Shown here in pieces: positions 15,902 to 44,240 of a DNA stretch of 64,000 nt. The notes under the pieces are model-generated. The model saw nothing but the letters and a program-made list of their open reading frames with translations. It ran no database searches and was not told the DNA's origin. Position numbers and translations under genes: made by a program. Origin of the DNA: Verrucomicrobiota bacterium (GTDB lineage: Bacteria > Verrucomicrobiota > Verrucomicrobiia > Limisphaerales > AAA164-E04). The DNA lies in the NCBI GenBank assembly GCA_047947115.1, contig CP170459.1:5760001-5824000 (forward strand), written 5' to 3'. How positions within the stretch are numbered: the stretch's first letter is position 1; every line of letters begins with the position of its first letter.

Positions 15902-16180
15902 ACCTCCCACGCATCCTGCTCATAGGACATTGAAATGGTAGTCAGATGAGCGGGAGTCACCCAATCAAACTTCACTGAATCCTCATAGAGATGAGGACAT
16001 GTCTTTCGGCATCGTGACACGTTGTCGTGAGGAAACCATTACCCACGACAACGTTTGTTCCGAATTCAGTTCAAGCGCATACTCGCGCGTAGCGATTCTG
16101 TTTCGCTGCCTGAAATCGAAACAGTATTCCAACACTCACTCGCACCGAAAGCCCAACCGTTCCAGAGTCCATCACACATC

Positions 16181-19885: not shown

Positions 19886-21907
19886 ATGAATTGGCAAACA
19901 GCACATGCTTCAGTCAAGCTATTGAAAAGGATAGCCTTCCTCGGAATCATCCAAAGCAGCCTCTGTTGCCTGCTTCAGGCTGAACAAAAAGAACCTGACT
20001 GGCAAACAGACATAGAGCCGGTCTTGAATGACCACTGTGTCAAATGCCATGGCCCGCTAAAACGTAAAGGAGACCTCGATCTCAGCACCTTTCATGGTCT
20101 GATTAAAGGAGGCGAGAACGGTCCGGTCCTGATTGCCGGAATGCCCGACACAAGTCCGGTCTACACCGTGCTGCTGGAGGGATCCGACCCTCACATGCCT
20201 CCCAAAAAACAACTGGAAACCAGGTCCATTGATTTAATCAGGGAGTGGATTCTTCATTTCAAGGAAATTGCCCCCATTGCAGGCGACCAAGAATGGACGG
20301 ATGCCAGTCCTGAACCTGCGGAACCGGAGAATTTACCCGCCCCTCCGAAAAACCTTACCCCTTCGCAAGCCATCGACTACTTCATCGAGACCAGGCTCGA
20401 ACAGGAGGGTATCACTCCGACCCCGGTATGTGATGACCGAACATTCCAGCGTCGCCTTTATCTGGATCTCATCGGACGGCCCCCCTCGATACAGGAATCC
20501 GAGCGATTTCTACGGAGCGGTTCCATTGCCAAACGAGCTGAAGAGGTCGACAGATTGCTCAAAAATGAATCGTTCGCGGTTCACTTTACCGAGTTATTCG
20601 ATGTATTCCTGATGGAGCGTCGCGGCAAACGGTGGGAGGATCGGCGCAAGGAGAATGGCTGGCATGATTTTTTAAAATCATCCTTTGCGGAGAACAGGCC
20701 CTGGGACCAGGTCACTCGTCAGATCATCCTGGCCAGACCGGATGAAACTCATTCAACGCCTATGGGAAGCATGTGGTTCCTGTATGAACGGGAGGACAAC
20801 CATCAGGCCATGGCTGAAGCCATCGCCCCCATCGTGTTCGGCACTCAAATCAAATGCGCCCAGTGCCACGACCACCCGCTGGCTCATGAGATCAAACAGG
20901 GCCACTATTGGGCCATGGTGGCGGCATTCAATCGCAGCAGGAATGTCAAAACCCCCAGAGGCATAGGCATCGCTGAATCCGCCGTTGGCGGTTTCATCAG
21001 TTTCGCCAATTTAAAAAAGGAATCCCAACCGGCAACACTTACCTTTCTCAACGGCGTCTCCGTTGAAGAGACGCGTCCCGATCCGGATGCCAATGATTCC
21101 GACCTTCCTAAGTATTACCTGATCGCTCCGCCCGAGGGAGATCAACAGCCTCAAGAACCTTCCATCCCCAAATTCTCCCGCCGAGAGGTCCTTGCAGATG
21201 CGGTCACAGTCGACAACCCATTGCTTGCCCGTTCCATGGTCAACCGTCTTTGGGCACTCATGATGGGGCGCGGCATCGTGCATCCGGTGGATGAAATGAA
21301 TTCGAAACACCCACCCAGCCATCCGGCACTGCTCCATTGGCTGTCGCTGGATTTTGAAGAGCATGGATATGACGTGCAACGCCTCGTTCGGACATTGGTT
21401 CTGAGCGAAACCTATCAACGCTCGACCTGGATCGGACAGGATCGACCGCACGCGGTCGACACTTTCGCTTGGGCTGCGGAGAAACCACTCTCGGCCGAAA
21501 CAGCGTTCCGGTCACTGCTGGCAGCCACCGGGCAGGATCTCGGCAAACCGTCGTCAGATAACGCCGTTCAGGCATTACGGCAGGCATTCATTGAACATTT
21601 CCCGGATCTGCTCCCGGTTGAATACAACGCAACCCTTCAGCAAGCCATGTTTCTGTCCAATTCACCGCTGGTTCAGTCCCTGCTGGAACCCAAAGCCGGG
21701 AACACTGCCGAAAAGCTGTTAGATATCGAAAACATCAACCAACGCGTTCGCGAGGCGTTTCTCTTTGTCTACGGCAGATGGCCGGATGCCTCTGAAAAGG
21801 AAGCAGCCACACAATTCCTGATCCATCGCGAGGATCGCCCCAAAGAAGGCGTTCAACAATTGTTGTGGACCTTGATCACAAGCGCGGAGTTTCTGACCAA
21901 TCACTAA
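19886..21907 (+). CDS. PVC-type cytochrome c + DUF1549/DUF1553 protein
   Basis: CVKCHG and CAQCHDHP motifs, RRLYLDLIGRPP, MVNRLW..MMGRGIV, PSHPALL, SAEFLTNH. Confidence 0.9.
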   Translation: MNWQTAHASVKLLKRIAFLGIIQSSLCCLLQAEQKEPDWQTDIEPVLNDHCVKCHGPLKRKGDLDLSTFHGLIKGGENGPVLIAGMPDTSPVYTVLLEGSDPHMPPKKQLETRSIDLIREWILHFKEIAPIAGDQEWTDASPEPAEPENLPAPPKNLTPSQAIDYFIETRLEQEGITPTPVCDDRTFQRRLYLDLIGRPPSIQESERFLRSGSIAKRAEEVDRLLKNESFAVHFTELFDVFLMERRGKRWEDRRKENGWHDFLKSSFAENRPWDQVTRQIILARPDETHSTPMGSMWFLYEREDNHQAMAEAIAPIVFGTQIKCAQCHDHPLAHEIKQGHYWAMVAAFNRSRNVKTPRGIGIAESAVGGFISFANLKKESQPATLTFLNGVSVEETRPDPDANDSDLPKYYLIAPPEGDQQPQEPSIPKFSRREVLADAVTVDNPLLARSMVNRLWALMMGRGIVHPVDEMNSKHPPSHPALLHWLSLDFEEHGYDVQRLVRTLVLSETYQRSTWIGQDRPHAVDTFAWAAEKPLSAETAFRSLLAATGQDLGKPSSDNAVQALRQAFIEHFPDLLPVEYNATLQQAMFLSNSPLVQSLLEPKAGNTAEKLLDIENINQRVREAFLFVYGRWPDASEKEAATQFLIHREDRPKEGVQQLLWTLITSAEFLTNH

Positions 21908-21915
21908 ACTCACCC

Positions 21916-23250
21916 ATGAACCCAAAACCATCCAATAACAGCCCCCAGCACTGCGTCACCCATGAACACACATGGCACCGTCGCAAATTCCTACAAGGCC
22001 TCGGTACAGGCATCGCAGGATCGATGTTCAGTTGGTCCGGATTGATGACACCCCAAATGTTCGCTGAGGCAGCGAAAAAGCAACAGAAGAGCTGCATCCT
22101 GCTCTGGCTCTGCGGTGCACCCAGCCAATTTGAAACATGGGATCCCAAACCAGGGCGTGCAACAAGCGGTCCGTTTGGCCATATTCCCACGAAAATTCCA
22201 GGTGTTCATTTCAGTGCGCTGATGCCAAAGTGCGCATCAATTGCGGATAAAATCTCAGTCATACGCTCCATGAAAACGGAGCCGACCGAACATTTTCAAG
22301 GCATCGACCGATTGAATCGAGGCGACGCACCGCGTCCCCCCTTCATACGTCCCTCCCTGGGAAGCGTCCTGGGTCAACAACTCGGTCAATTGGACAGCCC
22401 CATCCCTAATTTCATCCTCTTGGACCCCTGCCCTGAGGGCAATGAGTTTAAATCTTTCAAAGCTGGAAATTGGGCCGGATGGCTGGGGGCGGAGTACGGC
22501 CCCGTGAGACTTGGGGGTGAATACAGAATTCCAGATGTACAAAAACTCCCTGACATCACCACCCAGGACCATGAAGAACGTGAAGCGTTGAGACGTTTCC
22601 TGACACGTAAATTCGAGAACGATCGAAAAAGCGCTGCAGCAGCGTCGCAAAATGCCGCTTTTGAACGCGTCAAAGGACTCATGAGCTGCTCCCACCTCTT
22701 TGACCTGCAAAAGCTGCCTCAAAAGGATCGTGAGCGATACGGACAGGGCACCTTTGGCCAACACACACTGCTGGCCAGACACCTTGTAGAAAATGGGGCT
22801 CCTTTTGTGATGGTCGCCAATGGCATGCCTTGGGATTGCCACGTCTTTCAGCACGAAAACTACCAGATGCTCGTCCCTGATCTCGACAACATCATCTTCC
22901 AACTGATCAATGACCTGGACGATCGAGGCATGCGGGAAAACACCCTCGTGGTCATGATGGGCGAATTTGGACGCACACCATGGCTGAACGCCAGCCGAGG
23001 GCGAGATCACTACCCAAATGCCTGGAGCCTGGCCATGGCCGGTTGTGGTATCCAACAAGGCGTGGTAGTGGGTGAAACGGACCCTGACGGTATCGAAGTC
23101 ATTGACAAACCGTTTGATGAAAAAAACCTGTTTGCCACCATTTTCACCGCACTGGGAATTGATCCTTACGCAGCCTACGACCTCCCAGGGCTTCCGACCT
23201 TTCACCGCGTGGAACAGGAAGCATCGCCCATTCAGGAAATTTTGCTATAA
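21916..23250 (+). CDS. DUF1501 family protein with Tat-like signal
   Basis: RRKFL, GAPSQFETWDPKP, GEFGRTP, GRDHYP. Confidence 0.9.
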   Translation: MNPKPSNNSPQHCVTHEHTWHRRKFLQGLGTGIAGSMFSWSGLMTPQMFAEAAKKQQKSCILLWLCGAPSQFETWDPKPGRATSGPFGHIPTKIPGVHFSALMPKCASIADKISVIRSMKTEPTEHFQGIDRLNRGDAPRPPFIRPSLGSVLGQQLGQLDSPIPNFILLDPCPEGNEFKSFKAGNWAGWLGAEYGPVRLGGEYRIPDVQKLPDITTQDHEEREALRRFLTRKFENDRKSAAAASQNAAFERVKGLMSCSHLFDLQKLPQKDRERYGQGTFGQHTLLARHLVENGAPFVMVANGMPWDCHVFQHENYQMLVPDLDNIIFQLINDLDDRGMRENTLVVMMGEFGRTPWLNASRGRDHYPNAWSLAMAGCGIQQGVVVGETDPDGIEVIDKPFDEKNLFATIFTALGIDPYAAYDLPGLPTFHRVEQEASPIQEILL

Positions 23251-24866: not shown

Positions 24867-25460
24867 TCACACTGCCAAGAGATGCCTTTGAATCGATTCC
24901 CATTGCATAATGGTCGTAACAATTGTGGCGTCAGTCCAAATAACAAAATCACTCGCTTCCACTTTATGTTTGAGAGATAACTGTGCACCCAATCGCTTTT
25001 GAATGTGAGATTCGTCCCATCCCCTGCTGATCAAACGAGCATGTTGAGTTTTTGAAGAGCATGCCATGGCAATGATCTTGTCGAATCTTTTTTCAACTCC
25101 AGTTTCAAATAACAACGGAATAACCACTACTCCAAACGAAACACCCCTATCATCCCATTGGACCACCATGTTCTCCCAAACTTCGCGAATGCGGGGATGT
25201 AAAATTTGTTCCAGTTGTTTAAGCGAGTGATGATCATTGAAGACTATCCGGGATAACCGTTGCCGATTCAAAGAACCATCTGAAGCACAGACATCCTCAC
25301 CAAACATTTGTTTCACCAGATCAAAGGCAGGTTGACCAGGAACCAATAGTTCTCGGGAGATATCATCAGTGTCGATGACCGGCACATTCTCTGTTAAAAG
25401 GTGGCGAGTCAAAAAGCTTTTACCACAACCAATGCTTCCGGTTAATCCAACTAATTTCAT
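24867..25460 (-). CDS. coaE: Dephospho-CoA kinase
   Basis: GLTGSIGCGKS, VIDTD, LEQILHPRI, IPLLFE. Confidence 0.92.
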   Translation of the reverse strand: MKLVGLTGSIGCGKSFLTRHLLTENVPVIDTDDISRELLVPGQPAFDLVKQMFGEDVCASDGSLNRQRLSRIVFNDHHSLKQLEQILHPRIREVWENMVVQWDDRGVSFGVVVIPLLFETGVEKRFDKIIAMACSSKTQHARLISRGWDESHIQKRLGAQLSLKHKVEASDFVIWTDATIVTTIMQWESIQRHLLAV

Positions 25461-25516: not shown

Positions 25517-28500
25517 TTACTCGGATACCGCTCTGAAGAACGACTGGGACTTGCCGCCATTTTCAACACCTCGAACCTGAAGTCTACCTTCATGATTGGT
25601 TCGACCATTGTAAATCTGCTGCCACTTGTCCAATCCTTTCGATGTTTCAAGGATATATACCTGATCGGGTTGTCCGACGATTTCAAAATCAAGACCTCCT
25701 TGATCACCTTGAGAAACATACACAGAGGCGGTTTGTTGAGGTGCTGACACGATTTCCAAAGGAAGATCGATATTATCCAAGAAAACGGCATCCTTGCCTT
25801 CGCTATTGGAAAAATCTTTCACGTATCGCCATTCAAGCAAATGTTCGCCGGCATCAATGAGAAATTCAAATCGTTGCCACTCGAGATCGCCTGACCATTC
25901 ATTAACCAGCCGTCCGTCAATAAGGAAAGAAACCACATCCCAACCTTCCTCAGTGCTGACCTTGATATCAAATTTGCCCCGTCCTCCTGAAAAGTTTTGA
26001 CGGAGACTCAAGGTAGTCGTTTGGCCATGGCCAATTGAACCTGACATCAGTGAATAACTACCCGTGAAGCTTTCGGCGTCGGTGACTGTCCAGTTAGCAC
26101 CCTCACTCTGGAATGGCTGGGAAATGACCCCTGACTCAAAGTTATCACTCACCGTGATGGGTAAAAACTGAGCCTGCACCTCGAGATTCGAATCGATTAC
26201 CAAATTCAGTGGATTATCAGTGGAATCCACACTTCCTGCCCAACCGGCAAACTGAAATCCAGCATCAGGAACTGCTGTTAGCAAAACCTCAGAGCCGACG
26301 CCAAACAGTCCGGAAGCACCATCGATAACGCCTCCCTCACCGGCAATCAATATCAACTCACGTAGTTCGGTCGGTGTGTATTGGTAACGGATTCCAAAAC
26401 TACCACCGGCGCCACCAAACCCGTCAATCACTATCCAATATTGTTTACCAGCTTCCAACGCCTGGGTAATTCTGCTTCCTGAGCTGCTTGGTGTTGCGTC
26501 ATCATTGGAGGCGACAGCAACAAGATCAACAACCTTGGAACCGGTATAGATGGCCATTAAAGTGTCAAATCGTCCTCGGCGAACAGCTATGTCGATCTGC
26601 CCATCAGCTTCAGGAGTATAAGTATACCACATCGAACGTCCACCTGCGTTTCCTGCATGAAATGGCTCACCAAATTGTTTGGTTGCATTGGAACTGTCTC
26701 CTTCAATATCCCCCTCAAGTCCCTCCAAAACCAATGCATTTTTCAAATGATCATTAACCGGGTCCGAAACGACATATGAAACAAACACTTTAGAAATCTC
26801 AGATCGATTCCCTGCAAAATCAACTGCTTGTGCTTGGATGGTATTTAAACCTGGAACCAAATAGGCAATGGTTTCCCAATCTGATACGCCTTTGGCTGAA
26901 CCACCCGAAATCTCGCCGTTAACCCGTAATTGCACCTCCTGAACACCTGAAGCGCTGGGTTCCGGATCAAATGAATAACCCTTGATCACAATTTGCTGTT
27001 GTGAGCTGATGAGTCCACTTGATGGGGATTGTATTTTAACTACAGGTGCCATTAAATCAGGAGTTCCGTTTGGCTGGATGCGAAGACGGATAGTTCCTGA
27101 AGAAGTTTCATCGTGACTTGCCACAACAATCCGGTAACTGGCACCTTTGGTTACATTAAGGTTGAGGAAACCTGCCTTGCGTGATCCACTGTTGTCCACA
27201 CTGCCAACCTCCCGAAGACTATTGAGCTCATTGCCCTCGTAAACAGCCAATATAGTGTCAAAACCACTACCGGCAGTGTCAAGAATAACGGGACCAGAGA
27301 CTGCTGGAGACCAGCTCCACCACAATGAGTGGTCTGAGAAAAAGAATCCACCGTGTGCTGGTTCGTCCTCTTCTTTCGTAGCAAACTGATTATTGGTAAT
27401 GAACCTGCCACCAGAAGGGGACACCTTGGTTGCTAAACGAAAATCATCATTAGATGGGGAGGGAACAAGTATATAAGTTAAAGATATTTCTACAGGAGCT
27501 TTACCTTCTGCCTCCACCCTGACCACCATATCGTATTCGCCTGTATTACCCGGTAAATTAATGTTGGCACTGTAAATGGCGTCTCCTGCCTTAATGTCAG
27601 GAGCAGCTCCGTCATTGGCAAAGGTTGTAACTGTCCCGTCGGGACCTGATGCGGTAACTGTGGCATCGGGAATTCCAATCAAGTCGGTTACACGAACAAA
27701 AACAGGTTGTGCTGAACCGGTTAGCAAAACAGATTGAGAAGGTGGTGTCACCGAAGCTTCTAATGTCCCATCCGGTTCTACCTGAAGAGCATTCCATGCG
27801 TTAAGACGACCTCCGGTGGAAACTTTACTCAAAAAAGCTGAAGATTTCACAGCGGAACTAAGTATCCGTTCCTTTAATTCTGCAGCTTGCGAATCTGGAA
27901 AGACAGATTTGATAAGTGCCGCAACACCGGATACGTAAGGCGCTGCAAAACTGGTTCCGTCAAGAATATCGTAATCCTCGTCTGGAGCGACAGTTGTTGA
28001 TCCGGTTCCGGTGCCAATGTTGCCAGCTTCATCCCCGCTTCCCGCAACATGAATTTCGCTACCTGGAGCCGCAATATCGACAGATGTCACACCATAATTT
28101 GAAAAATCAGCAAGAAGATCATGTCGATCAGAGGCTGCGACGGAAATGATGTTGTCGATTTCGTAGTTTGATGGGAAATGGGTAAAAATATCGTTGTTAA
28201 GACCGTCATTACCGGCTGCAGCTACAAAAAGCACTCCGTTTTCCTGCGCCAAAGCAATGGCATCAAAGAGACCTTGACCATAAGATCCCCCACCCCAGCT
28301 GGCGTTGATAATGTGAGCGCCCATTCGAACAGCGTATTCGATGGATTCAATCAAATCGGAGTCCTGACCACCGAAAGGGCCCAGGGCTTTGCATGCCATA
28401 AGCTGGACTTCCCAAGCAACACCCACAACATCTTTGTCGTCTGCAGAAGCTCCGATAATGGAAGCAACGGCGGTTCCGTGATCTTCGACATCCAATGGAT

Positions 28501-29257
28501 CACCAGTGTCATTCACTGCATTGATGCCATAAATATCATCCACCCATCCGTTGAAATCATCATCAAGCCCATTCCCTGGAATTTCACCGGAATTGACCCA
28601 CATGTTGGCAACCAATTCCTGATGAGTATAACGTATGCCTGTGTCGATAACGGCGACCAACACATCTTTGGATCCTGTTGTAATATCCCATGCTAGATCA
28701 GCATCAATATCAGCATTTTCCACACCTCCGCTCTCACCAGTGTTTTTCAAACCCCAAAGTCGGCCATCTACGTATGCTGGATCTTCTGCATCTTTATATA
28801 TACGACGAATAAAATTAGGCTCTACGTATTGGAACAAGCCAGATTGTTTCAGAACATCAATTCGTGCTTGCAAGTCCTCTGCCTGCTGCTCCTTGTTAAC
28901 CCCGGGACGATATCCCGCTCTGGGAGCATTGTGATTCACGGCAACATCCAAAAGGACTAATCCGGGGATACCTGGATATTGGCGACCAACCACCGAACCG
29001 GACTCCTGCAAGGCGGATCTAACGTCAGCGGATGTAAGCGCGCTTGTGTTATGATTGTTAAGCCTGGCCAATATGCGTGTGGGATGAACTTCGCCACCGT
29101 TTAAGGATATCCAAGGGGAACCTTCCTGTGCATTGGCAATCATACACATTACATAAAAAGTGAAGATCCCAGTTGTTAAAAACTTCATACCCTGTGTGCT
29201 TAGCCTTTTAAGAGAGTTTTTCATTATTATTTCAGGCAATCCGGATTGGCTCCTCAT
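25517..29257 (-). CDS. Secreted multidomain S8 subtilisin-like protease
   Basis: VAVIDTG, HGTAVA, AAAGN, GTSFAAP triad/oxyanion; two repeated ND..A...EP.H...FDT.LAVY.G domains, Ig-like and InlB-B-like repeat; C-terminal ...FFRAV domain. Confidence 0.88.
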   Translation of the reverse strand: MRSQSGLPEIIMKNSLKRLSTQGMKFLTTGIFTFYVMCMIANAQEGSPWISLNGGEVHPTRILARLNNHNTSALTSADVRSALQESGSVVGRQYPGIPGLVLLDVAVNHNAPRAGYRPGVNKEQQAEDLQARIDVLKQSGLFQYVEPNFIRRIYKDAEDPAYVDGRLWGLKNTGESGGVENADIDADLAWDITTGSKDVLVAVIDTGIRYTHQELVANMWVNSGEIPGNGLDDDFNGWVDDIYGINAVNDTGDPLDVEDHGTAVASIIGASADDKDVVGVAWEVQLMACKALGPFGGQDSDLIESIEYAVRMGAHIINASWGGGSYGQGLFDAIALAQENGVLFVAAAGNDGLNNDIFTHFPSNYEIDNIISVAASDRHDLLADFSNYGVTSVDIAAPGSEIHVAGSGDEAGNIGTGTGSTTVAPDEDYDILDGTSFAAPYVSGVAALIKSVFPDSQAAELKERILSSAVKSSAFLSKVSTGGRLNAWNALQVEPDGTLEASVTPPSQSVLLTGSAQPVFVRVTDLIGIPDATVTASGPDGTVTTFANDGAAPDIKAGDAIYSANINLPGNTGEYDMVVRVEAEGKAPVEISLTYILVPSPSNDDFRLATKVSPSGGRFITNNQFATKEEDEPAHGGFFFSDHSLWWSWSPAVSGPVILDTAGSGFDTILAVYEGNELNSLREVGSVDNSGSRKAGFLNLNVTKGASYRIVVASHDETSSGTIRLRIQPNGTPDLMAPVVKIQSPSSGLISSQQQIVIKGYSFDPEPSASGVQEVQLRVNGEISGGSAKGVSDWETIAYLVPGLNTIQAQAVDFAGNRSEISKVFVSYVVSDPVNDHLKNALVLEGLEGDIEGDSSNATKQFGEPFHAGNAGGRSMWYTYTPEADGQIDIAVRRGRFDTLMAIYTGSKVVDLVAVASNDDATPSSSGSRITQALEAGKQYWIVIDGFGGAGGSFGIRYQYTPTELRELILIAGEGGVIDGASGLFGVGSEVLLTAVPDAGFQFAGWAGSVDSTDNPLNLVIDSNLEVQAQFLPITVSDNFESGVISQPFQSEGANWTVTDAESFTGSYSLMSGSIGHGQTTTLSLRQNFSGGRGKFDIKVSTEEGWDVVSFLIDGRLVNEWSGDLEWQRFEFLIDAGEHLLEWRYVKDFSNSEGKDAVFLDNIDLPLEIVSAPQQTASVYVSQGDQGGLDFEIVGQPDQVYILETSKGLDKWQQIYNGRTNHEGRLQVRGVENGGKSQSFFRAVSE

Positions 29258-32079
29258 GGTGCATAACTGACCCGATAGAACCTACCGTGAATATCGGATC
29301 CTACATTATCTTCTACGCTGATGACCTGTCGTTCACGAGATGGATTTGAAACTGATTTCAAATAATTCCAACCCTGTTCAAAAATGTCATTCTTGAACTC
29401 AACTTTATAGGTTGTACTACCAGCAGCCATCCAAGAAATGCTGGCTGTTTGTTGAGCACCATTATCGACGCTTATTTCATTCAGTACGACCCCGTCGAAA
29501 GGGTTCACATCAAGACCGTTAGCAACACCATCCCCATCATCATCAAGAATCAGGCTTTCCTTACGTGCCTGGTTGACCAAAATTGAGGTTCCGTCCGATA
29601 ATACGACAGGAACTCCACTTAGAGGACCGGCATACTCGGGAACCCATTGAAGTTTTCCTCCAAAAGCGCCGTCCAGCTCCTCGACAGGTATGTTGGAACT
29701 TGCAAAATAAATCATCATACCCTCTTCAATGGACACTGTGCTTTGCCAGTTTTCAGCAAAATTGTCATTGAACAGCAATCTATCCACGTAAATGGCCGCA
29801 CTACCACCTCCGGAGGAGAATTTAGCTTTTGCACCGATAGGTCCTTCGATAACCAATGTGCCGATGGCAGAATTATTTTTAAAACCTGACACAGATCTAC
29901 CCAAGTCCCGGCTTTTCCAAATGTGGCTCACATTGGCAAATCTGGGAATGTTACTTTCCAACCTAGTTCCCAATAAATCACCGTTTGCAGGAGTTTGTAG
30001 CATTTGGAATCCATTATTAACCCGTATATTGTTGTTAGCATTCGGCCCTGAATCGGTCAATGTACCGGTGATATCCAAAAATAATTTGGAAGATGTATCT
30101 ATTTGGTTGTCTCGCAACTTGAAATTTGTTCCTTTCAAAACTAAATCTCTACCGGCTCCCACCGTTCCAGATTCTAATTTGCCATCAACTGCCTCAATTT
30201 CGACTCTACCACCGCTGGCAATCAAACCGGTGTTCTCGAAATAATCAGCTTTAAATCTCTGACTGAAAGCGACCACTGCACCATTGTTGATAAAGGAATC
30301 CAGTCCATCATCGATATCTGAACCATATTCGGCGAGCTCGTTTACGCTTAACGCTCCGTTCACTGTAATGTTGCGCGTTTCCGGCCAATTGGATTTGCCC
30401 AGTTGCTCGATGTGACCAAAGAAGTTTAATTCAGAATCCACGGTGAGATTCTCGGATTTAACCTGAAATGATTGAATGACGTTTAGATCATCTCCAATAA
30501 CAACGTCCGTGGCTTCAGCAACCAATTCATGTGTCAAGACATTGGCACGCGTCCTTAGCTGAGTGGCGTCAATGACAGTCATGTGGTAAAAATATGTAAT
30601 GACATTCGTGGTCATTGTCGGCTCAGCAGCAGGATCCTCTGCGGGCGTTTCTATTACGATACCAGACAAGTTTGTCCAAACGGTACTATAAGCGTAAATT
30701 TCGCCACTGAATCGATCAACCTGCGGCTTTGAAACACCGGTCATATCGAGCACACCGTTTGTGGATGCCAAACTGTAACTGATATTTTGAACATCAATTG
30801 CAGAGTTGGCTGTGTTGACCAAGTGCTTGGTGTTTACACTGATTAAACCTTCGCCTCGAATACGCGTCCCGTTTAAATCCAAAACATCGGCGTTGATTTC
30901 GACTCTCCCAGGCTGACTCTCCGATGCGGGTATCCTAGCAGAAGTGATATCTCGTTCTGTAGAACTTTCCACCAGCGCTGCATAAGCTGCATAGAAGTTG
31001 GTTACAATCGTATTTGAGAAACTGGCATTGTAAAGCAGATCAGGAGATAGCTCAGCGTTTGGTAAAGTACCATCGGACCAGCTGTAATCCTGGGTAAATG
31101 GTGCAATACGTGAGAGAGAATACGTGGAAGGTTTGTATGTGGGCTCATTTCCATTCTGCTGGAAAACAAGATTTGTATCCCAAGCCAGTGTATCCGTCAT
31201 GTAGAGAGTAAACAGATCAGAGCTACCAGTAACAACGTTGGTTAATGGAACGCTGTATTCAATCATGGCTGTACTGATATTGTTAGTAACAGGACTTGTG
31301 TCAAAACGAACCTGAGTCTGAATTCTACTGTCTCCCAAGGCTGAAAAAACAGCTTGTACGATGATATTTGTTTCTGTAATAGCATTGGAGATGATAAAGG
31401 CATCCGCACCTTGCAATGCTACAGTGGCAAATTGTGGAAACAAAGCAGTGTTTGTTACTTGATGACCAGGAGAAATGATATTGGCACTGCTACCTACAAC
31501 ATTTAGAAAACCGGACGAATCAACTAAACCATTTGTCAGGCCACCCCAATATTGATCAAATACACCAGCTTCGGGATTAAAATTTGTCCCAAAAGAAGAT
31601 GAACCAGTTCCCCGTAAGGGGGCAACGAGTAAACCACCATCACTTAAATCGACGTGGTCACCGTTAATGCTCAATAATCCAGATGAACCGACGGAAATAA
31701 GTCCGTGGTTTTGAATATTGGTGGCATTCACAACGACTCGATTGGGAGTGTTGGAAAGAGCATTCACTTGAGCCCCCACTCCATTAAAAAATGAACTGGC
31801 TTTCGAATGTGCTCCACCGTCGCTGATATGTTCAAAAATAAAACCAGCTTGACTGTTCATCACGCCATAATTGGTATAGTTTAGCGTGTTTTGAGTATCG
31901 AATGGCAGGGGTGAAGAAAACTCGGAAAAAGATCCTTGATTTATGAAAGTAACCGCATTGACAGGGAGATCATCGAGTGCATCGACAAATCCCTTATTGA
32001 TATATACATCTTGCGGTTGTGCCGAGGCGTTTAAACCACCGGCTAACATGAGTAACACCCATTTATTAATCAACTTCAT
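29254..32079 (-). CDS. Large exported hypothetical protein, beta-helix/adhesin-like with DDDGDG Ca-binding motif
   Basis: Signal peptide, N/T/G-rich repeats (NATNIQNHGLI, FENTGLIASGG), C-terminal ...RFYRV domain. Confidence 0.7.
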   Translation of the reverse strand: MKLINKWVLLMLAGGLNASAQPQDVYINKGFVDALDDLPVNAVTFINQGSFSEFSSPLPFDTQNTLNYTNYGVMNSQAGFIFEHISDGGAHSKASSFFNGVGAQVNALSNTPNRVVVNATNIQNHGLISVGSSGLLSINGDHVDLSDGGLLVAPLRGTGSSSFGTNFNPEAGVFDQYWGGLTNGLVDSSGFLNVVGSSANIISPGHQVTNTALFPQFATVALQGADAFIISNAITETNIIVQAVFSALGDSRIQTQVRFDTSPVTNNISTAMIEYSVPLTNVVTGSSDLFTLYMTDTLAWDTNLVFQQNGNEPTYKPSTYSLSRIAPFTQDYSWSDGTLPNAELSPDLLYNASFSNTIVTNFYAAYAALVESSTERDITSARIPASESQPGRVEINADVLDLNGTRIRGEGLISVNTKHLVNTANSAIDVQNISYSLASTNGVLDMTGVSKPQVDRFSGEIYAYSTVWTNLSGIVIETPAEDPAAEPTMTTNVITYFYHMTVIDATQLRTRANVLTHELVAEATDVVIGDDLNVIQSFQVKSENLTVDSELNFFGHIEQLGKSNWPETRNITVNGALSVNELAEYGSDIDDGLDSFINNGAVVAFSQRFKADYFENTGLIASGGRVEIEAVDGKLESGTVGAGRDLVLKGTNFKLRDNQIDTSSKLFLDITGTLTDSGPNANNNIRVNNGFQMLQTPANGDLLGTRLESNIPRFANVSHIWKSRDLGRSVSGFKNNSAIGTLVIEGPIGAKAKFSSGGGSAAIYVDRLLFNDNFAENWQSTVSIEEGMMIYFASSNIPVEELDGAFGGKLQWVPEYAGPLSGVPVVLSDGTSILVNQARKESLILDDDGDGVANGLDVNPFDGVVLNEISVDNGAQQTASISWMAAGSTTYKVEFKNDIFEQGWNYLKSVSNPSRERQVISVEDNVGSDIHGRFYRVSYAP

Positions 32080-32106
32080 ATGCAAACAAAATTCCTTGAA
32101 AGGAAA

Positions 32107-33582
32107 TTATCGAGAAAAAATCAGACTTTCCAATGCCTCTAGATCTGCCCCTTGTGGAAATACGACAGGATCATTGGTTGTCCCATCAAATGCTCCCCAC
32201 ATTTGCCAGCTAACTGCTCCAAAAGTGCCATTTTCCAGATAGGCACCAGTAGCATCGACAACTCCATTCCAAAAAGGAGTAACCGTATTGAACGTTAACG
32301 TAGCACCTCCAATAATCCCTGGTCCATCGTCATCACCAGTTGTTCCATCAAATGTGTCACTATTGATCCAGTTGACATTGCCAAGTGCCAATGGAGTGTA
32401 AGTCACCGGATCCTGGGCGAAAGCTCCTTGTAAATCCCGAGCGTCAAATCTAAGATCTGGCTGGATCAAATTACGAATCAACCTCTGTGATCTCCGCACT
32501 CCATTGGTAACGTAGTTGTCGGTAAAATTAACCGTCATTGGCGTAAAAAATTCACCCAGTAGGGAATCATAATTGGCTTCCACAAAATCCAGGACACCAA
32601 TACCACCCCTAACAGCAGGGTTGATAAAAGTTGTCGTTCCGGCACCCGCACCACCAGCTGGTTGGGTTCCAGTTGTTACGGTAGCGACTGCATTGGTTGC
32701 AATAACGGCTGAATCATAAGCCCCGCCCCCCGAACCACCGGGAAATCCGCTGTAGTCATAAATGCCCCCACCACCAACAGCACCACCACCGCCAGCAACG
32801 ACACCGCCAGTGCCGGTCACATCAGGAATCGACGTTTCCATGTTGTAGTTTTTGGGATTGTAGAGATACTTTATGCCTCCGACATCATCACGGCTGAGGC
32901 TGGAGATGTAGAGACCTGATAGCAGTTCAACAGGACCACTACGAGCGGCGGAAGCAGGTGTAGTTGTAGTAAAAAACCTCTCAGAAGGATCTACCGGGAA
33001 GACAGACGGACAACCTTGCCGATTATAAGTGTAAAGGGTACCGTTGACATACGGACTCATTAAATAAGTCACCGGATCAAAATTCCGGACAGTGAGGTAG
33101 TATTCAACAACAGCACCATTTTGAATCCACGCATTTCTTGGCGCATAAACGTAGGCTGTTGGATCTTCCAAACCTAGGGCACGCATGGTGCTTTGGATTG
33201 CAATTGATTTGACATCCATCAACCCTAAGGCGCGCGCACGGTGATTGATCCTCATACTCTGAGTTGGATAATCATCGATATTGAGTGCATCGGCACTGGG
33301 CAATTCATCAAGAACAGCTATGGCCTTTTGAATTTCCTCTACACCACGCGCACCAAAAAAACTCGCGAAGTCGGAAGTAACACCGTAAGTGATAATGGGA
33401 ACGTTAAACCGGTATTCCTCATCAATGTTCATCGGCCCGGTAAGACCACTATAACACGCATTGCTAGAGGGAATTGCCTCAGACATCCAAGGGGGTCGAG
33501 GACCTGCCAGCGAGAAGGCGTTTGTGTCACTGGTAGAAACCAGAAGAACAGTCAAAGCTACTAAATTGAAAAATCTTGTCAT
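32107..33582 (-). CDS. Exported hypothetical protein with degenerate matrixin-like region
   Basis: Signal peptide (..TNA/FSL), DVKSIAIQSTMRALGLED and LSRDDVGGIKYLY segments, Gly/Thr-rich linker. Confidence 0.65.
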   Translation of the reverse strand: MTRFFNLVALTVLLVSTSDTNAFSLAGPRPPWMSEAIPSSNACYSGLTGPMNIDEEYRFNVPIITYGVTSDFASFFGARGVEEIQKAIAVLDELPSADALNIDDYPTQSMRINHRARALGLMDVKSIAIQSTMRALGLEDPTAYVYAPRNAWIQNGAVVEYYLTVRNFDPVTYLMSPYVNGTLYTYNRQGCPSVFPVDPSERFFTTTTPASAARSGPVELLSGLYISSLSRDDVGGIKYLYNPKNYNMETSIPDVTGTGGVVAGGGGAVGGGGIYDYSGFPGGSGGGAYDSAVIATNAVATVTTGTQPAGGAGAGTTTFINPAVRGGIGVLDFVEANYDSLLGEFFTPMTVNFTDNYVTNGVRRSQRLIRNLIQPDLRFDARDLQGAFAQDPVTYTPLALGNVNWINSDTFDGTTGDDDGPGIIGGATLTFNTVTPFWNGVVDATGAYLENGTFGAVSWQMWGAFDGTTNDPVVFPQGADLEALESLIFSR

Positions 33583-33590
33583 AGTTTGTA

Positions 33591-35507
33591 TTACTTCAGT
33601 CTGACAACTCGATAGATGTTCTGTGCTTCAGAAGCAGTTATGGACATTCGTTCACCGACGTCACCTGCCACCTTGGGACCTGTGACATTACCCCACTGAA
33701 GGAGATCTCCGGTACTTTGAATTTGATATACTGCACCGGGAATTGTATCCCAAGTCAGCCAATAATCGCCATCCAATTTCTCCATACCGACCTGGAGAAC
33801 ACTGCGAGGGTTCAAAGGATTGGTTCCAGCCAGCAACTCTTCCAAATTGGTGAGCCCATCGCCGTCACTATCCATTTGTGAGTCATCCCATTGTTTCGGG
33901 TTAAAACCCCAAAATGTTTGCTGAAAACTGTCGGGCAAGCCATCGTTGTTATTATCATCCCCCCACGTAGTTCCCTCACCGGGTGCGCTCAAGGTTGATT
34001 TAACTCCAGCGGTTGTCACATAGGAAATGCTGGCACTATGACGTGAGCCTGCGGGTAGATCAGTAATTTCAATGAAATTGGAGCTTGATATGATCGGGGA
34101 ACTCGAATCATCCAAAGTCACCTCATAATGTTTAACGTCAGCGTTTTCAACAGCTGGCCAAGTGATTCCAAGTTTATTGAAACCAAGCCCATATACAAAC
34201 GGGGTCGAAGGATTTTCCAACTGAACACCCGAGCTTGATTGGCTACCTTCAAATTTTAATGCTCGCAGGTCGAAACTCTGCACACCACCCAAATATGAAC
34301 TCCAAACGGCCACAAAATCACCGCTGTCAGTGGCGGCAAGCGAGGGCATGTATTGTAAGCTGGATTGGTCCTGATTTACAAATGCTGGAGAACCGGAAAC
34401 TGATCCATCGTCATTCAGCATGACACCATAAATATCTGAACCATTACCATCACCGCCAAAGCCGGTCCATGCAACCATCAGTTGATTGCCGCTACGAGCG
34501 ATTACTGGAACCGCTTGATCATTACCAGCATCTATGGATATTTGCTGAGATGAGTTTATGGATCCATCCGAACCAATAATAGATGCAAAAATTGCCCAGT
34601 TACCTGGCTCACCTACAAGAGAAACTTCCTGGAAGGCGGGATTCTGCAACCCTGAATAAACAAGCGCCAAATCGCCACTACCATTGAGAGCAATGGAAGG
34701 ATTTGCAGCCAAAGTTGTTGTTTCAGTGAGTTGAAATTCGTCCCCCTTGGGCTTGCCATTGTAATAAAAATGACGACCCCACACACTCACGGAAAAGTTT
34801 GAACCTAGACCACCAACAGGAGCCTCGGAAACCCAGACAACAAAAAAGCCTCCGTCCGCAGTCTTAGTAATGCCCGGACTTCTTTGGTTGAGGAAAGAGC
34901 TTTGTGGAACGGAAAATTCAGGACCAATTTTTGCGCCTTCCGTACTAATGATTTGTCCAAAAACACCTAACCGGTCTCCATCCTGGTCTTCACTTTCCCA
35001 TACAACAACAGCATTTCCATTGTCTAAAACAGTAATAGAAGGATTTTTTTGGTTGTGATCCGTATACGAATTGACATCAAAATCATCAGCCAAAAACGCC
35101 CCATCCTCCCCCATCAATCGGGCTCTGATATTACCGTCGCTTTCCCATATGAAAAAAGCCCCATTGTCACCAGTTAAGGCAACATCCGGATTTTGCTGGT
35201 CTCCATCTGTGGTCATATTAACCACAAAAGGTTCAAAAACGGGATGGAGTTCCTCGTTTAGCCGAACGGCACTGATGCCTTGACCATCACCGTCCATTGC
35301 ATTTCCCTCCCAGATCACGTATCCACCGTTGGGACCCAATGCGATCTTACTGTTGATCTGATCACCAGGTAGGGATGTTGCGATGGAAAATTCGCTCCCG
35401 ATGGGAGTGAGCTCAGCCATACAATTGCCTATGCAAACAGCACCAATAAGTGTGGTAAGCACGGGCTTTGTCAGACTGATGATGGTATTTCGATTCATTT
35501 CCAACAT
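33591..35507 (-). CDS. Exported hypothetical protein: propeller-like repeats, FN3-like domain, DSDGDG motif
   Basis: Repeats F.VN..T...Q..P.VA; DSDGDGLTNLEELLAGTNP; C-terminal ...IYRV domain. Confidence 0.7.
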   Translation of the reverse strand: MLEMNRNTIISLTKPVLTTLIGAVCIGNCMAELTPIGSEFSIATSLPGDQINSKIALGPNGGYVIWEGNAMDGDGQGISAVRLNEELHPVFEPFVVNMTTDGDQQNPDVALTGDNGAFFIWESDGNIRARLMGEDGAFLADDFDVNSYTDHNQKNPSITVLDNGNAVVVWESEDQDGDRLGVFGQIISTEGAKIGPEFSVPQSSFLNQRSPGITKTADGGFFVVWVSEAPVGGLGSNFSVSVWGRHFYYNGKPKGDEFQLTETTTLAANPSIALNGSGDLALVYSGLQNPAFQEVSLVGEPGNWAIFASIIGSDGSINSSQQISIDAGNDQAVPVIARSGNQLMVAWTGFGGDGNGSDIYGVMLNDDGSVSGSPAFVNQDQSSLQYMPSLAATDSGDFVAVWSSYLGGVQSFDLRALKFEGSQSSSGVQLENPSTPFVYGLGFNKLGITWPAVENADVKHYEVTLDDSSSPIISSSNFIEITDLPAGSRHSASISYVTTAGVKSTLSAPGEGTTWGDDNNNDGLPDSFQQTFWGFNPKQWDDSQMDSDGDGLTNLEELLAGTNPLNPRSVLQVGMEKLDGDYWLTWDTIPGAVYQIQSTGDLLQWGNVTGPKVAGDVGERMSITASEAQNIYRVVRLK

Positions 35508-35607: not shown

Positions 35608-38601
<2,994 letters not shown>

Positions 38602-38647: not shown

Positions 38648-39439
38648 TTATTGAACAATTCCTTTGGTTATGGTCGTGTGCTTAGATGTCTTTTCGTCAG
38701 ACAAAACAACTTCGGTTTCGGAAACAAATACAATTTCGTAATTGCGCTTATCAATAGAAATCTTGTCACCTTTCATGACGCTGGTGAATTTCCGGCGTCC
38801 GGCAGCATATTCCAGATCCGCTTTGTAACCTGCAATTTCTGTATATGGCTCTTGCGCATTGACAGTTATGGTTTTGTTTGATGCCAACAATTCAAGTACG
38901 AATGACTCAGGCCTGAGGGCATCCCCTTTCACTTCACGCAGAATAAAAATATCATTTTTATCACGTAAGCGAGCGTTGCGTGTCATCCGTCGACGCTCAC
39001 TTCGTTTTTCGGCAGCTTCTCTCGTAACAGAAAAACTATACTTGGGGTTTTCCACATCCAACTCCTTGTCGGCATTGAATTCGATAGTCAAGTAGAGTGG
39101 TTCAGTTGCCAATATCTCGACAGCGTTAGGTCCTTTGTGTCCGTAAAAACGATCCTTGACCAGTGTTCCGTTGTCTTCCAACCATCCGACCGGATTAAAC
39201 GTATTGTGGTCGGGACCAGCCAAACGGATGTGCTCCGGGTTCTTGGCACGATTCAACAAAGCGAGGCTTTCGCTGAGATCTTTCTGTTGAAATTCTTTTG
39301 GCTTTCTGGGACGTATACTCTCCTCCAATTCGGCGCGAATCGCGGACACCGAAAAGGGCAAGTATGCCGCAGCCCCAGCCAGACCGAGCAAGACCACGGC
39401 CAAGATTATCTTTTCGTAATGCTTTTTTAGAAAATCCAT
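38648..39439 (-). CDS. Secretin-operon accessory protein (Amuc_1099-like position)
   Basis: MDFLKKHYEKIILA N-terminal anchor; position between PilO-like gene and secretin. Confidence 0.6.
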   Translation of the reverse strand: MDFLKKHYEKIILAVVLLGLAGAAAYLPFSVSAIRAELEESIRPRKPKEFQQKDLSESLALLNRAKNPEHIRLAGPDHNTFNPVGWLEDNGTLVKDRFYGHKGPNAVEILATEPLYLTIEFNADKELDVENPKYSFSVTREAAEKRSERRRMTRNARLRDKNDIFILREVKGDALRPESFVLELLASNKTITVNAQEPYTEIAGYKADLEYAAGRRKFTSVMKGDKISIDKRNYEIVFVSETEVVLSDEKTSKHTTITKGIVQ

Positions 39440-39461: not shown

Positions 39462-40574
39462 TTAATATCCATACCCGCCAGATCCGCCATCATCTTCCTC
39501 GTCGGACGGTAGAGGCATCAATGAGTCGAGTTCTTCCTCGGGGAAAGTAGCTATGGCAACCAAACTCATATTGACGGTCAAGGGGCTTTCGTCAAGATCT
39601 TCGAGTTTGTTGTTGTCCTGCATCGGTTGTTGCCCTCCGCCAGCCATTCCTGCATAAGGATTTCCACCACCGTATCGGCTTGCTTGGCCTGCAGAAGATG
39701 GTTCAAGACCATACATGCGCTGCATCATGGAGTCTCCACCTATTCCGGATCCGTATGATGAACCACCCCCGTCTTGTTCAACGGCCATCCACTTGATTCG
39801 GAAATAGTGGTTCGAACGGTTGAATCCATCCATCACCCTGGCCAGTTCCGAGCTGAAGCATTGAAAACTGATCTGGAATGGAATCATGATGGCATTAATA
39901 TTAGGATCTTGGGTTGCCACATCCTCTATATAATTTTCACCCGCTGATGCGCTTGAAGAAGTGCTAGTGGATGTTACCCCCAAACCGATTCCCCCTGCAG
40001 CACTTGGACCGTCGTTGTCACTGACTGGCAAACGCTTTATAGCATTAATGCCGTGAATCTTAGCTTCAAACAACACGTTGCACAATTCCCGAATTTCGTA
40101 GAGCTGGAAGGTCAGTGGCCGAAGCGCTTCCGGCTCCAGATCAATTCTTGGGCGAATGTCATCAAATGAAAATCCATAACTGCCCTGATCCACAGATGGG
40201 AGACTGATGCCAGTATACCTGGCATCTCTCTGCATTTCAGAAAGTGTGTTTTCCAGTATTTCCTTGAATTCGGAAATTGAAAGTGACTCTGGGATTTCGA
40301 ATCCAGGAAAATAAGATTCCATCGGTCCAAGCACAACTTCCTGCACACGCGCCTGTTCCTTTTGGACCGCACCGATATTGTCAACCTTGTCCGTACCGGG
40401 ATGGGGATCACGGTTATAGAGCTGTTGAACCAAAGAGCGCTGTTGCTCAAGATCAGCCGTAACGGTTTTTTCCAAATCGATCTGCGACATCATGTACCAA
40501 ACGGCCACTCCCATTAGAATGAGAGCTGTGACTCCGCCGATCACCAATCCCACGTTTTGCTTAATCCAGTTCAT
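39462..40574 (-). CDS. Amuc_1100-like / PilO-like protein
   Basis: MNWIKQN start, single TM, coiled coil, GFSF..Y/I motif; synteny pilM-X-X-secretin. Confidence 0.65.
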   Translation of the reverse strand: MNWIKQNVGLVIGGVTALILMGVAVWYMMSQIDLEKTVTADLEQQRSLVQQLYNRDPHPGTDKVDNIGAVQKEQARVQEVVLGPMESYFPGFEIPESLSISEFKEILENTLSEMQRDARYTGISLPSVDQGSYGFSFDDIRPRIDLEPEALRPLTFQLYEIRELCNVLFEAKIHGINAIKRLPVSDNDGPSAAGGIGLGVTSTSTSSSASAGENYIEDVATQDPNINAIMIPFQISFQCFSSELARVMDGFNRSNHYFRIKWMAVEQDGGGSSYGSGIGGDSMMQRMYGLEPSSAGQASRYGGGNPYAGMAGGGQQPMQDNNKLEDLDESPLTVNMSLVAIATFPEEELDSLMPLPSDEEDDGGSGGYGY

Positions 40575-42454
40575 TAGTCCACCAGTGAAATAGGTTCTTT
40601 CAGTTTCAAGGAAATTTCAAAATCGAAGGTTCCTTCCTCTTCGTCCACAGGAGCCAACTCACCGGTCAATTTCGTGTCGTCAGCATTGAAATAATTCGTT
40701 TGGGACTGCAGTTTTTGAAGCAAAGTAAATGCCAAATTGTTATTTGCATTGGGATTAATCGCTCGCCGATTCACTCCCCGACATGTTAGTGTCAGTTTGG
40801 AGATCAAATCTTCATTCTCCTCGTCTGATGTGTCCCCTTCTTCATCATCCCAATCATCTTCACCCCCACTGTCGCCCATGGGTATCAAGCCATACCGCTT
40901 CATCATTTCGATATCCATCATGGGAGTCTGCTCCTCTTCATCATCCCAATCATCAAACGTTTCGGCTGCACCAGTCAGATCAATTCCCGCACTGTCAGGT
41001 AAGAGAGACTCGATCCAAAGCCCGGAATCAAGCGAAAACCGACGCTGTGCTTCATTTTCAGCTTCGACCAGAGAACCGCGTATAACTTTAAGGAGGTCAC
41101 TCCAAAGGTACCGCTGGTTGAGAAGTTTTCCGTAGATTTCCGCTTTGCTCAACTGGGTTTCAAGAGCGGATTCTTCTGGACGAAGTTGTTGTTCCAAACT
41201 TTGCAGTGGAGCCGCGATGGTCCGAAGTTCGTTCAAGACGCGTTGTTTCTCGCCGTGAACCTGTGAGAAAAAGAGACCGATAGAAGCAACCACCAGCACC
41301 AACCCGAACACTGCAGAGATCAAGTAAGGCTTTTTGCGATTGAACTCCTGACGTTGAAGGGAGGATTTGGGCATCAAGTTCAGCTCCACAGGGCACTGAA
41401 CCACGTTTCGAAGCCCGAGCCCGACAACCTCCCCAAATGAGTGGGCTACCCGAGCCAATTCTTCCAAGTTGATGGAAGGATCAATCTCGACAGCCCGGAA
41501 AGGATTGAAGTATTCCACTTCAACGTTTAATTTTTCTGCAAAAAATTGGGCTGTATATGGCATGATGGAAGCCCCACCCGCCAGGAACAGTCGATCAGGC
41601 GCGGAACCACCCTGTTGACTGCGATAAAACTGCATCGTCTGGTTCACCTGGATATGCAGGCGAGTCATCACCTGACGAGCAATTTTGGAAATTTGTGCTT
41701 GCTGAGGATTGTCAGGATCTTCATAAGCCCCCCCCAAACTGACGAAGCCCTGTTCAATTTTGAATTTTTCCGCCTCAGGAAAGCGCATCTTTGCTTCGGT
41801 GGAGAATTCCTGAGTAATGGAATTGGCACCAATGTTTATACTGCGCGCAAATACTTTGCCCTTTTCGAAAAACAACAGGTTGCTGGATTTAGCCCCGATA
41901 TCCAACAGCATCGTGCAACCTTCCAAATCCCCGTAATTGTATCGGAAAGCATTGCAGATGGCGGCCTGCGAAACGTCCACGAGGTTAACCACCATTCCGT
42001 GGTTTTCGGCGGCCTTGAAAACTTTATCCACCAATTCAGTCTTGATGGCTACCAGAAGCACTTCCAGTTCACCACCTGGGGATGTCCCCATGATCTGGTA
42101 GTCCCAAACTACCTCATCCAGAGGGAAGGGCACATTCTGCTGCGCCTCGTATTGAATGATCTGGGTGACCTTGGACGAGTCAACGGGTGGAAGTTTGACG
42201 AACTTGGAGAACACCTGATAACCAGGAGCACAGACGTTGATTTGTTTCGTGGAAAATCCCTGTTCATTTACCAGAGATTGCAAGGCCTTTTTGACAACAC
42301 CTTCGCGAACGGCATCCTGAGCACCAGGCAATCCCAGAGCGTGCTGGCCGAATTTCTTCAATACCAGGCTGCCAGAATCGGTCTGATCAAACTCAGCGAC
42401 TTTGACGCAACCAGCGCCTAGATCGATGCTCAAAAACGATTTTGTCTTTAACAT
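40574..42454 (-). CDS. pilM: PilM fused to PilN-like domain (Amuc_1101-like)
   Basis: SIDLGA, EAQQNVPFPLDEVVWDYQ, LLDIGAK, LAGGAS, GLGLR then ELNLMP + TM + coiled coil (PilN-like). Confidence 0.85.
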   Translation of the reverse strand: MLKTKSFLSIDLGAGCVKVAEFDQTDSGSLVLKKFGQHALGLPGAQDAVREGVVKKALQSLVNEQGFSTKQINVCAPGYQVFSKFVKLPPVDSSKVTQIIQYEAQQNVPFPLDEVVWDYQIMGTSPGGELEVLLVAIKTELVDKVFKAAENHGMVVNLVDVSQAAICNAFRYNYGDLEGCTMLLDIGAKSSNLLFFEKGKVFARSINIGANSITQEFSTEAKMRFPEAEKFKIEQGFVSLGGAYEDPDNPQQAQISKIARQVMTRLHIQVNQTMQFYRSQQGGSAPDRLFLAGGASIMPYTAQFFAEKLNVEVEYFNPFRAVEIDPSINLEELARVAHSFGEVVGLGLRNVVQCPVELNLMPKSSLQRQEFNRKKPYLISAVFGLVLVVASIGLFFSQVHGEKQRVLNELRTIAAPLQSLEQQLRPEESALETQLSKAEIYGKLLNQRYLWSDLLKVIRGSLVEAENEAQRRFSLDSGLWIESLLPDSAGIDLTGAAETFDDWDDEEEQTPMMDIEMMKRYGLIPMGDSGGEDDWDDEEGDTSDEENEDLISKLTLTCRGVNRRAINPNANNNLAFTLLQKLQSQTNYFNADDTKLTGELAPVDEEEGTFDFEISLKLKEPISLVD

Positions 42455-42750
42455 GTGTTTTACTTTCCTGTCTATCAGGGCAACAAAAATCCTGTGAGAG
42501 CACATGCCCCCAAGAACTCACATTGCGAAGGTCGGGGAGGTGAATATGGGAAATTACCCATCGGGTCAACAGAAAACTGACCCCTTACTCAACAAACACC
42601 GCATTTCGCAACTTCATCCCATTTTTTGATGCCCTGTTTGGTTTCCAATGCGAGGTCTTTGAGTTTCTTTGACCGCTTCCACTTTCCACCTACTCAAAAA
42701 TAACTGAAGGCGTGTTTCGCACTCCTTCAAGGCACCTTTACGGGGTTCTT

Positions 42751-44169: not shown

Positions 44170-44240
44170 AGGACTTCAAATTGAGTATTCGGGCCTGAAT
44201 TCAGGAGTAAGAGAAAACGGATTAAACTTCAAATGCAAGG

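Follow-up and report, generated by a model that had tools for sequence, protein, structure and literature searches.

The 64,000-nucleotide stretch considered here (henceforth referred to as the window; positions 5,760,001 to 5,824,000 of contig CP170459.1, assembly GCA_047947115.1) comes from a Verrucomicrobiota bacterium of the order Limisphaerales, whose genome we analysed as one 6.08-Mb contig (G000:C1). On its reverse strand lies a secretin gene, whose product has Amuc_1098_fam as its top family (5.1e-93; 312.6 bits, below the cut-off of 750), and between this gene and coaE stand four genes for exported proteins (Table 1). Three of the four products, a propeller-like protein, a beta-helix-like protein and an S8 subtilase, have signal-peptide-like N-termini, as read from their translations, and close with a domain of about 70-85 aa, henceforth referred to as the tail, which is the subject of this analysis. 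An earlier note on the window, made from the sequence alone, had aligned these C-termini, pointed to a DxDGDG motif just upstream in two of the proteins and proposed that the tail either anchors its cargo at the cell surface or serves as an export signal for the adjacent secretin. The C-termini as quoted there and the DxDGDG motif in two of the three proteins were both confirmed in the translations.

Pairwise comparison with phmmer failed to connect the three tails, none of which matched another at E<=10, and profiles were therefore needed. A hidden Markov model (HMM) built from the three window tails alone found seven more open reading frames (ORFs) in the genome, and all seven matches end within 5 aa of the C-terminus. 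When the three window tails were left out and a model was built from 40 other tails of the genome, a search of 17,594 ORFs recovered the propeller and subtilase tails and, marginally, the beta-helix tail (independent E-values, i-E, in Table 1), each at the extreme C-terminus of its protein, and the same search of reversed ORFs gave no match at 1e-3. The leave-out matches and the clean reversed control bear out the earlier claim of a shared domain and confirm that the three C-termini are members of one real family, which is uncatalogued in Pfam and NCBIfam; no model of either collection covers the last ~80 residues of the three window proteins. A search of the literature (titles and abstract openings) and of Pfam, NCBIfam and PDB sequences found no description of the tail module. 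A homologue search with the tail alignment returned 27 proteins, named ‘hypothetical protein’, ‘fibronectin type 3 domain-containing protein’ or after their cargo, and none of them named for the tail; the same search with one single tail returned one near-identical fragment.

The tail motif reads G..Y.[LVI][EQ].[ST].D[L]..W ... [FY][YF]R[VLI], after which 2-5 residues remain before the stop codon. In an alignment of 96 tails the conserved columns are I/L23, L33, I35, W/F37, G39, G42, Y45, L47, E/Q48, S/T50, D52, L53, W57 (83%), V60, F85 (83%), Y/F86, R87 (80%) and V/L88, and the chain usually continues for 2-4 residues after the Arg. The upstream DxDGDG or TSP3-like motif (in longer form D.D.DG...EE...T.P.DP.S) precedes 13 of 100 tails, compared with 60 of 5000 random windows. 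This linker also explains the matches of the Amuc_1099 family to 5 of 43 aligned tails, which fall on the TSP3-like motif (model positions ~105-158); when the tail profile was run against Amuc_1099 orthologues (L104-L106), no match was obtained at E<=10.

Table 1. Genes and tail features at the secretin locus, in window coordinates
Feature	Position	Strand	Match or remark
Exosortase gene	44966-45946	-	EpsH match 2.6e-43
PilM-like protein	40574-42505	-	Pfam/NCBIfam scans of the window
Small protein	39462-40574	-	upstream of secretin gene
Small protein	38648-39439	-	upstream of secretin gene
Secretin gene	35608-38601	-	Secretin PF00263 2.1e-29
Exported 638-aa propeller-like protein, TSP3 repeat and tail	33591-35507	-	TSP3_bac 2.9e-7
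TSP3-like calcium-type motif in propeller tail	~33807-33872	-	ahead of sandwich core
Propeller protein tail, residues 551-638	33594..33857	-	leave-out i-E 2.4e-6
Sandwich core of propeller tail	~33594-33797	-	follows TSP3-like motif
Exported 491-aa protein, tail-less, member of conserved block	32107-33582	-	no Pfam/NCBIfam match
Exported 943-aa beta-helix-like protein with tail	29254-32085	-	no Pfam/NCBIfam match
Beta-helix protein tail, residues 854-943	29257..29526	-	DDDGDG just upstream; leave-out i-E 5.5e-3
Exported S8 subtilase, 1246 aa, Peptidase_S8, Flg_new_2 and tail	25517-29257	-	Peptidase_S8 2.7e-54
Subtilase tail domain, residues 1168-1246	25520..25756	-	leave-out i-E 1.1e-5, match residues 1172-1245
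coaE	24867-25460	-	next gene after subtilase

Fold, placement and cargo of the tail

Two of the three window tails, those of the propeller and beta-helix proteins, were modelled with AlphaFold2 using family alignments, and each model is confident and has six strands. The mean confidence score (pLDDT) of the propeller tail was 84.4, with residues 21-88 mostly above 89, and that of the beta-helix tail (last 88 aa) was 86.2, with strands at 11-19, 23-32, 36-43, 52-59, 65-74 and 81-86. Foldseek found nothing in the PDB for either model at E<=0.001. With VIA-align, the propeller tail model matched immunoglobulin (Ig) and fibronectin type III (FN3) structures at Z 5.2-6.4, with EMMPRIN D1 and tissue factor at the top, and the beta-helix tail model gave Z values of 6.5-7.5, led by a glucanotransferase domain and followed by FN3 domains of cytokine receptors, Dscam, titin and fibronectin, with tenascin FN3 also in this set; the Z values are only middling, the maximum being 7.5. 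The earlier expectation of a beta-rich, Ig-like shared fold thus agrees with both predicted models. Alignments to single FN3 chains stop 15-18 residues short of the chain end (7jgu_A 2-75/90, 3mpc_B 3-78/96, 8oty_A 2-83/101), and for this reason the predicted tail looks like an FN3-like sandwich that ends after strand F and lacks the G strand. The tail profile also matches canonical FN3 arrays, in which an F strand of the form YYYR[LV].A.N is followed by the G strand, and these cross-matches, judged at the level of sequence, would fit a descent of the tail from FN3.

The number of tails in the genome was determined with an iterated profile, which at i-E<=0.01 found 127 domains in 119 ORFs, and 100 of the 127 end within 5 residues of the C-terminus; several of the 27 scored as non-terminal are divergent terminal tails with cut alignments. 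A strict model trained on terminal copies only found 80 domains, of which 66 are terminal (<=8 aa), compared with 2.5 of 79 expected under uniform placement, which amounts to a 26-fold excess at the protein end. The genome-wide count that the earlier note had called for, started from the three window tails and then iterated, therefore leads to about 100 ORFs that end in a tail domain.

The same note had asked whether tails are always C-terminal, and they are not. In the same genome, copies stand just behind the signal peptide and ahead of a LIP lipase, two GDSL lipases, three FGE-sulfatase-like enzymes, a beta-lactamase-fold protein, Spondin_N and CHRD. Eight tandem tail units, the last of which forms the protein end, are carried by an S8 protease of 3021 aa that also has a P-domain and PPC (G000:C1:476355-485420, reverse strand; L060). 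In a 131-aa ORF (G000:C1:5097987-5098382, forward strand) a signal peptide is followed by one tail and nothing else, which makes it a stand-alone secreted copy. Internal copies, which the note had named as evidence against its reading, are thus present in the genome, and tandem arrays are common worldwide too. The 3021-aa protease has close counterparts among the best worldwide matches (P0013, P0014, P0036).

The domain content of 40 terminal carriers was determined by scanning. They include S8, C11 and M10 peptidases, CotH/LTD giants, PKD, PA14, Calx-beta and LRR_5 proteins, an MtrC/MtrF-like cytochrome and another multihaem cytochrome, and 14 of the 40 are without a Pfam match; such contents are typical for proteins that are secreted or lie at the surface. 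By a crude signal-peptide test, 66 of 87 carriers of at least 300 aa were positive, compared with 1182 of 2794 other ORFs, and a second version of the test gave 55/87 and 1053/2794; many of the carriers that were missed look by eye as if they have signal peptides. Carriers thus mostly bear signal peptides, a point that the note had wanted checked. The earlier note had also held that the tails are not PEP-CTERM signals, and this stands: the three window tails close with a beta strand and 2-5 further residues, without PEP motif, transmembrane helix or basic tail, and we rejected a PEP-CTERM reading. By a crude pattern, only three ORFs of the genome are PEP-CTERM-like and none of them is a tail carrier, despite the nearby exosortase. 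This exosortase (EpsH, 2.6e-43) is encoded together with its DUF3485 partner and a Bac_transf sugar transferase immediately upstream of the PilM-secretin operon (42751-45946, reverse strand).

Distribution, secretins and the conserved gene block

Tails are widespread among relatives of the window's genome, being matched in 30 of 31 genomes with 20 to 148 matches each. The one genome without a tail match (G026; 2.6 Mb, 94% complete) belongs to the same order. It contains an orthologue of the propeller protein (L045, G026:C31:1-6000) with a long Ala/Thr/Lys-rich stretch, in which the contig end cuts the sequence at a tail-like ...LQWGSD, so that a divergent tail is possible there. Across the phylum, 70 of the 121 genomes sampled have tail matches; most Akkermansia-type genomes, like G026, count as tail-less. 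A search of 1.84 billion cluster representatives gave 49,089 matching proteins at E<=0.001, of which 1,982 reach 1e-10. The best 150 of these worldwide matches are mostly multi-copy; in five that were read, each unit ends FYR[LVA] and the last unit closes the protein, and in 92 of 145 multi-copy representatives that the profile found again, a copy lies within 6 residues of the end. In the ESM Atlas the matches fall in unnamed clusters only, and the commonest phylum is Verrucomicrobiota.

For the comparison with secretins, a genome was scored as secretin-bearing when it matched the Amuc_1098 family model at E<=1e-10; the model is a marker of secretins in general, since E. coli and other controls are matched as well. 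Secretin matches were found in 116 of the 121 phylum genomes, and 46 of these have no tails, as is also the case for G026, in which a secretin is present (6.4e-59). Conversely, none of the 70 tail-bearing genomes lacks a secretin match, and the five secretin-less genomes are tail-less as well. A tail in a secretin-less genome, which the earlier note would have taken as contrary evidence, was therefore not seen, and the co-occurrence that it wanted tested was seen in one direction, for all 70 tail genomes, and not in the other, for the 46 tail-less secretin genomes. Within the window's genome, nine ORFs have a secretin domain, and six tail genes lie within 15 kb of them compared with 5.3 expected (P 0.42); three of these six are the window's own. 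Overall, a special tie between tail and secretin is neither demanded nor backed by the phylogenetic and positional tests, and the claim that the adjacent secretin recognises the tail found no support in them. Co-occurrence is uninformative on recognition of the tail; the tail may still depend on some secretin, as no tail genome was seen without a secretin match.

At the locus, the linkage of the three tailed genes with the secretin is conserved only within this bacterial order. The block of secretin, propeller protein, 491-aa protein, beta-helix protein, subtilase and coaE is kept with all three tails in G025, G022 and G016, so that the full block occurs in four genomes from three families of the order, G016 being a second genus of the window's family. 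Tailed orthologues of the subtilase occupy the same position in L041, L043 and L044, where the 943-aa beta-helix protein also has tailed orthologues, and its orthologue in L042 has a different C-terminal module; the 491-aa protein has orthologues in L041-L044, and the propeller protein is encoded directly after the secretin in L041-L045. In an Akkermansia-type genome (L061, G108:C1:1265500-1285200) the secretin gene abuts coaE and the four-gene block is absent. Two things that the earlier note had merged are thereby told apart: a phylum-wide end module, and a conserved four-gene block that in this bacterial order is inserted between the secretin gene and coaE. Beside the region, at 19886-23250 on the forward strand, a PSCyt1/PSCyt2/PSD1 protein and a DUF1501 protein are encoded, a pairing typical of Planctomycetes and Verrucomicrobia.

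In a tree of tails, sequences group by cargo orthology and not by genome, each orthologue set forming one group with support of 87-94, which means that tails and cargo have long been inherited together. A departure from this pattern is seen in G028 (L042, G028:C3:48000-67900), where the orthologues of the propeller and beta-helix proteins (ORFs 14485-16998 and 8358-12176, both on the reverse strand) end in another shared module of ~330 aa; the two copies of this module are 34% identical over 337 aa (E 2.6e-46), and no ORF of the window's genome matches it. Because two orthologous cargos switched together to another common end module, this case speaks for an end module that conveys a shared fate rather than a cargo-specific function.

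Possible roles of the tail and comparison with known systems

Compared with the earlier note, the present analysis adds the leave-out proof of the family, the N-terminal and stand-alone copies, the negative secretin tests, the four-gene block, the co-inheritance tree, the G028 swap and a hint of similarity to family 32 carbohydrate-binding modules (CBM32). With reservations, and at something short of even confidence, we read the tail as an uncatalogued FN3-like terminal module for retention or binding that putatively holds exported proteins at the cell surface, rather than as a signal that the secretin would recognise. Retention or binding fits better than a cleavable translocation signal because the domain functions N- or C-terminally, in arrays and alone, and on proteins that Sec exports. 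Cargo would first be exported by Sec and would then pass the outer membrane by its own route, after which the module would bind a common envelope component, putatively a glycan. The ligand might alternatively be a protein strand, possibly from other copies of the module, that pairs with the edge of strand F that lies free because the G strand is missing, and tandem copies would add avidity. With respect to the earlier proposal of anchoring or secretin signalling, anchoring therefore remains the best reading, whereas recognition by the secretin is unsupported.

Several observations weigh against retention or binding. A simple binding module has no need of so strict an ending, 2-5 residues after the Arg, and the conserved columns are mostly of core type (I/L, W, Y, F, G), the polar ones being only E/Q48, S/T50, D52 and R87. 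In seven of eight comparable orthologue pairs the tails are less conserved than their cargo (26-44% compared with 34-45% identity), which counts against a binding role because a spacer would show the same. The CBM32 similarity on which a glycan ligand would draw covers only ~52 of 136 residues and could be convergent. The data themselves carry caveats of the same direction: iteration carries the profile into the FN3 superfamily at large, so that domain counts depend on the threshold (80 to 127); the ORFs are longest ORFs and hence uncurated gene models; and both signal-peptide tests are crude, with 38-42% of background ORFs positive, and indicate a rough enrichment only.

We considered whether the tail could instead be an outer-membrane translocation and attachment signal, similar to the C-terminal domain (CTD) of type IX secretion systems (T9SS) and read either by an unknown machine or by a secretin-based system resembling type II secretion, such as the adjacent one. 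The extreme C-terminal position of 100 of the 127 copies on about 100 unrelated exported proteins, an Ig-like sandwich of CTD size with the PorZ CTD among its fold matches, and a low sequence conservation that is also typical of export tags would all be expected of such a signal, as would the three carriers in a conserved block right after the secretin and the secretin match in every tail genome. The N-terminal, tandem and stand-alone copies would not, and it was on these that the notion of a strictly C-terminal export tag foundered. In addition, dozens of generic Ig and FN3 structures score level with the PorZ match, many secretin genomes, including G026, are tail-less, tail genes are not enriched near secretin ORFs, and in the Akkermansia-type genome coaE directly follows the secretin; the lack of a Por_Secre_tail or SprA_N match in the genome points the same way, if weakly, since the controls were silent as well. 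On balance we regard such a signal as unlikely. A little less credence still goes to the view that the tail is a mere FN3-type structural spacer or stabilising cap, whose terminal position would be a by-product of the addition of modules to genes. The generic fold, the mostly core-type conserved positions, the faster evolution of tails than of cargo, the resemblance of the tandem arrays to FN3 stalks and the overlap of the profile with canonical FN3 repeats are consistent with a spacer, but it would leave unexplained the 26-fold excess at the exact protein end, the consistent loss of the G strand with a chain ending 2-5 residues after the Arg, the stand-alone secreted copy, the retention of tails on their cargo across families in well-supported orthologue groups, and the parallel switch of two orthologues to another shared end module in G028.

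The tail could also be a carbohydrate-binding module that targets substrates and derives from the C-terminal portion of a discoidin or CBM32 domain; it would hold enzymes on polysaccharide and not on the cell. When the tail profile was compared with PDB sequences, the best matches were indeed the CBM32/discoidin domains of a Paenibacillus glucanase/chitosanase (2rv9, 4zxe; E 1.6e-5), with other CBM32 entries at 0.007-0.9, and among 43 tails weak, partial and sub-threshold Pfam matches were obtained to F5_F8_type_C_2 (NedA-like; 8/43), F5_F8_type_C (7/43) and DUF3999 (6/43). However, the PDB match is confined to the middle of CBM32 (residues 56-110 of 136), the predicted fold is FN3/Ig and not a full jelly roll, and cytochromes, proteases, CotH kinases and LRR proteins, all among the cargo, have no polysaccharide substrate, which together make this explanation very unlikely. 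At the level of sequence the CBM32-like similarity may be taken as a hint at glycan binding and not as membership of that family.

A further idea, speculative and rather improbable on present evidence, is that Verrucomicrobiota have an undescribed pathway of surface display for which the G-strand-less tail is the address tag, and in which an outer-membrane receptor or scaffold would donate the missing strand and so fix ~100 exoproteins per cell; if true, the tag would be the functional counterpart of the T9SS CTD in a phylum not known to have T9SS. In soil, sea and gut, Verrucomicrobiota count among the major polysaccharide degraders, and to our knowledge it is not known how they display or release their many exoproteins. 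One uncatalogued module that closes ~100 exported proteins per genome marks the exoproteome in annotation, and the tail may be used as bait for its ligand or receptor and, if retention by the tail is true, as a display tag.

Among known systems, the T9SS CTD (type A) of Bacteroidota, for which we take Por_Secre_tail PF18962 and TIGR04183 to be the family accessions, resembles the tail in being a small Ig-like sandwich of 70-90 aa with low conservation that ends many unrelated exported proteins, and the PorZ CTD (5m11_A 684-761) matches a tail model at Z 5.4 with a root-mean-square deviation of 3.6 over 70 aligned residues, a match tied with generic Ig/FN3 structures. The predicted tail has six strands whereas the CTD has seven, and tails also occur N-terminally, in tandem and alone, with 27 of 127 copies not scored as terminal. 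PF18962 gave no match on the three window proteins (E<=0.01), on 43 tails (E<=1) or in the whole genome, and the control genomes gave none either; SprA_N (PF14349) likewise had no match in the genome, an absence that is weak because 14 control genomes were also silent. FN3 domains (fn3 PF00041) are the best fold matches (Z 6.5-7.5) and share with the tail a common core pattern of a B-strand W, a C-strand Y and an F-strand Y/F-x-R/V, and the tail profile cross-matches FN3 arrays. In contrast to FN3, the tail in the predicted models ends after strand F, without FG loop and G strand, and has a strong bias to the protein end; fn3 PF00041 itself gave no match on the three window proteins (E<=0.01) or among 43 aligned tails (E<=1). 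With CBM32 and F5/8 type C domains (2rv9, 4zxe) the tail shares the local pattern W...Y.[IV]Q.S.D...W, but it is half their size, is predicted to be an FN3-like sandwich and shows no evidence of a sugar site. SLH domains and dockerins are small terminal modules that non-covalently anchor or dock many unrelated secreted proteins. The tail has no sequence or fold relation to them, its host is Gram-negative and any partner, cohesin-like or a polymer, is hypothetical, so that the likeness is one of working only: in all of these cases small modules, placed at either end and often in tandem, are exchangeable between unrelated secreted cargos.

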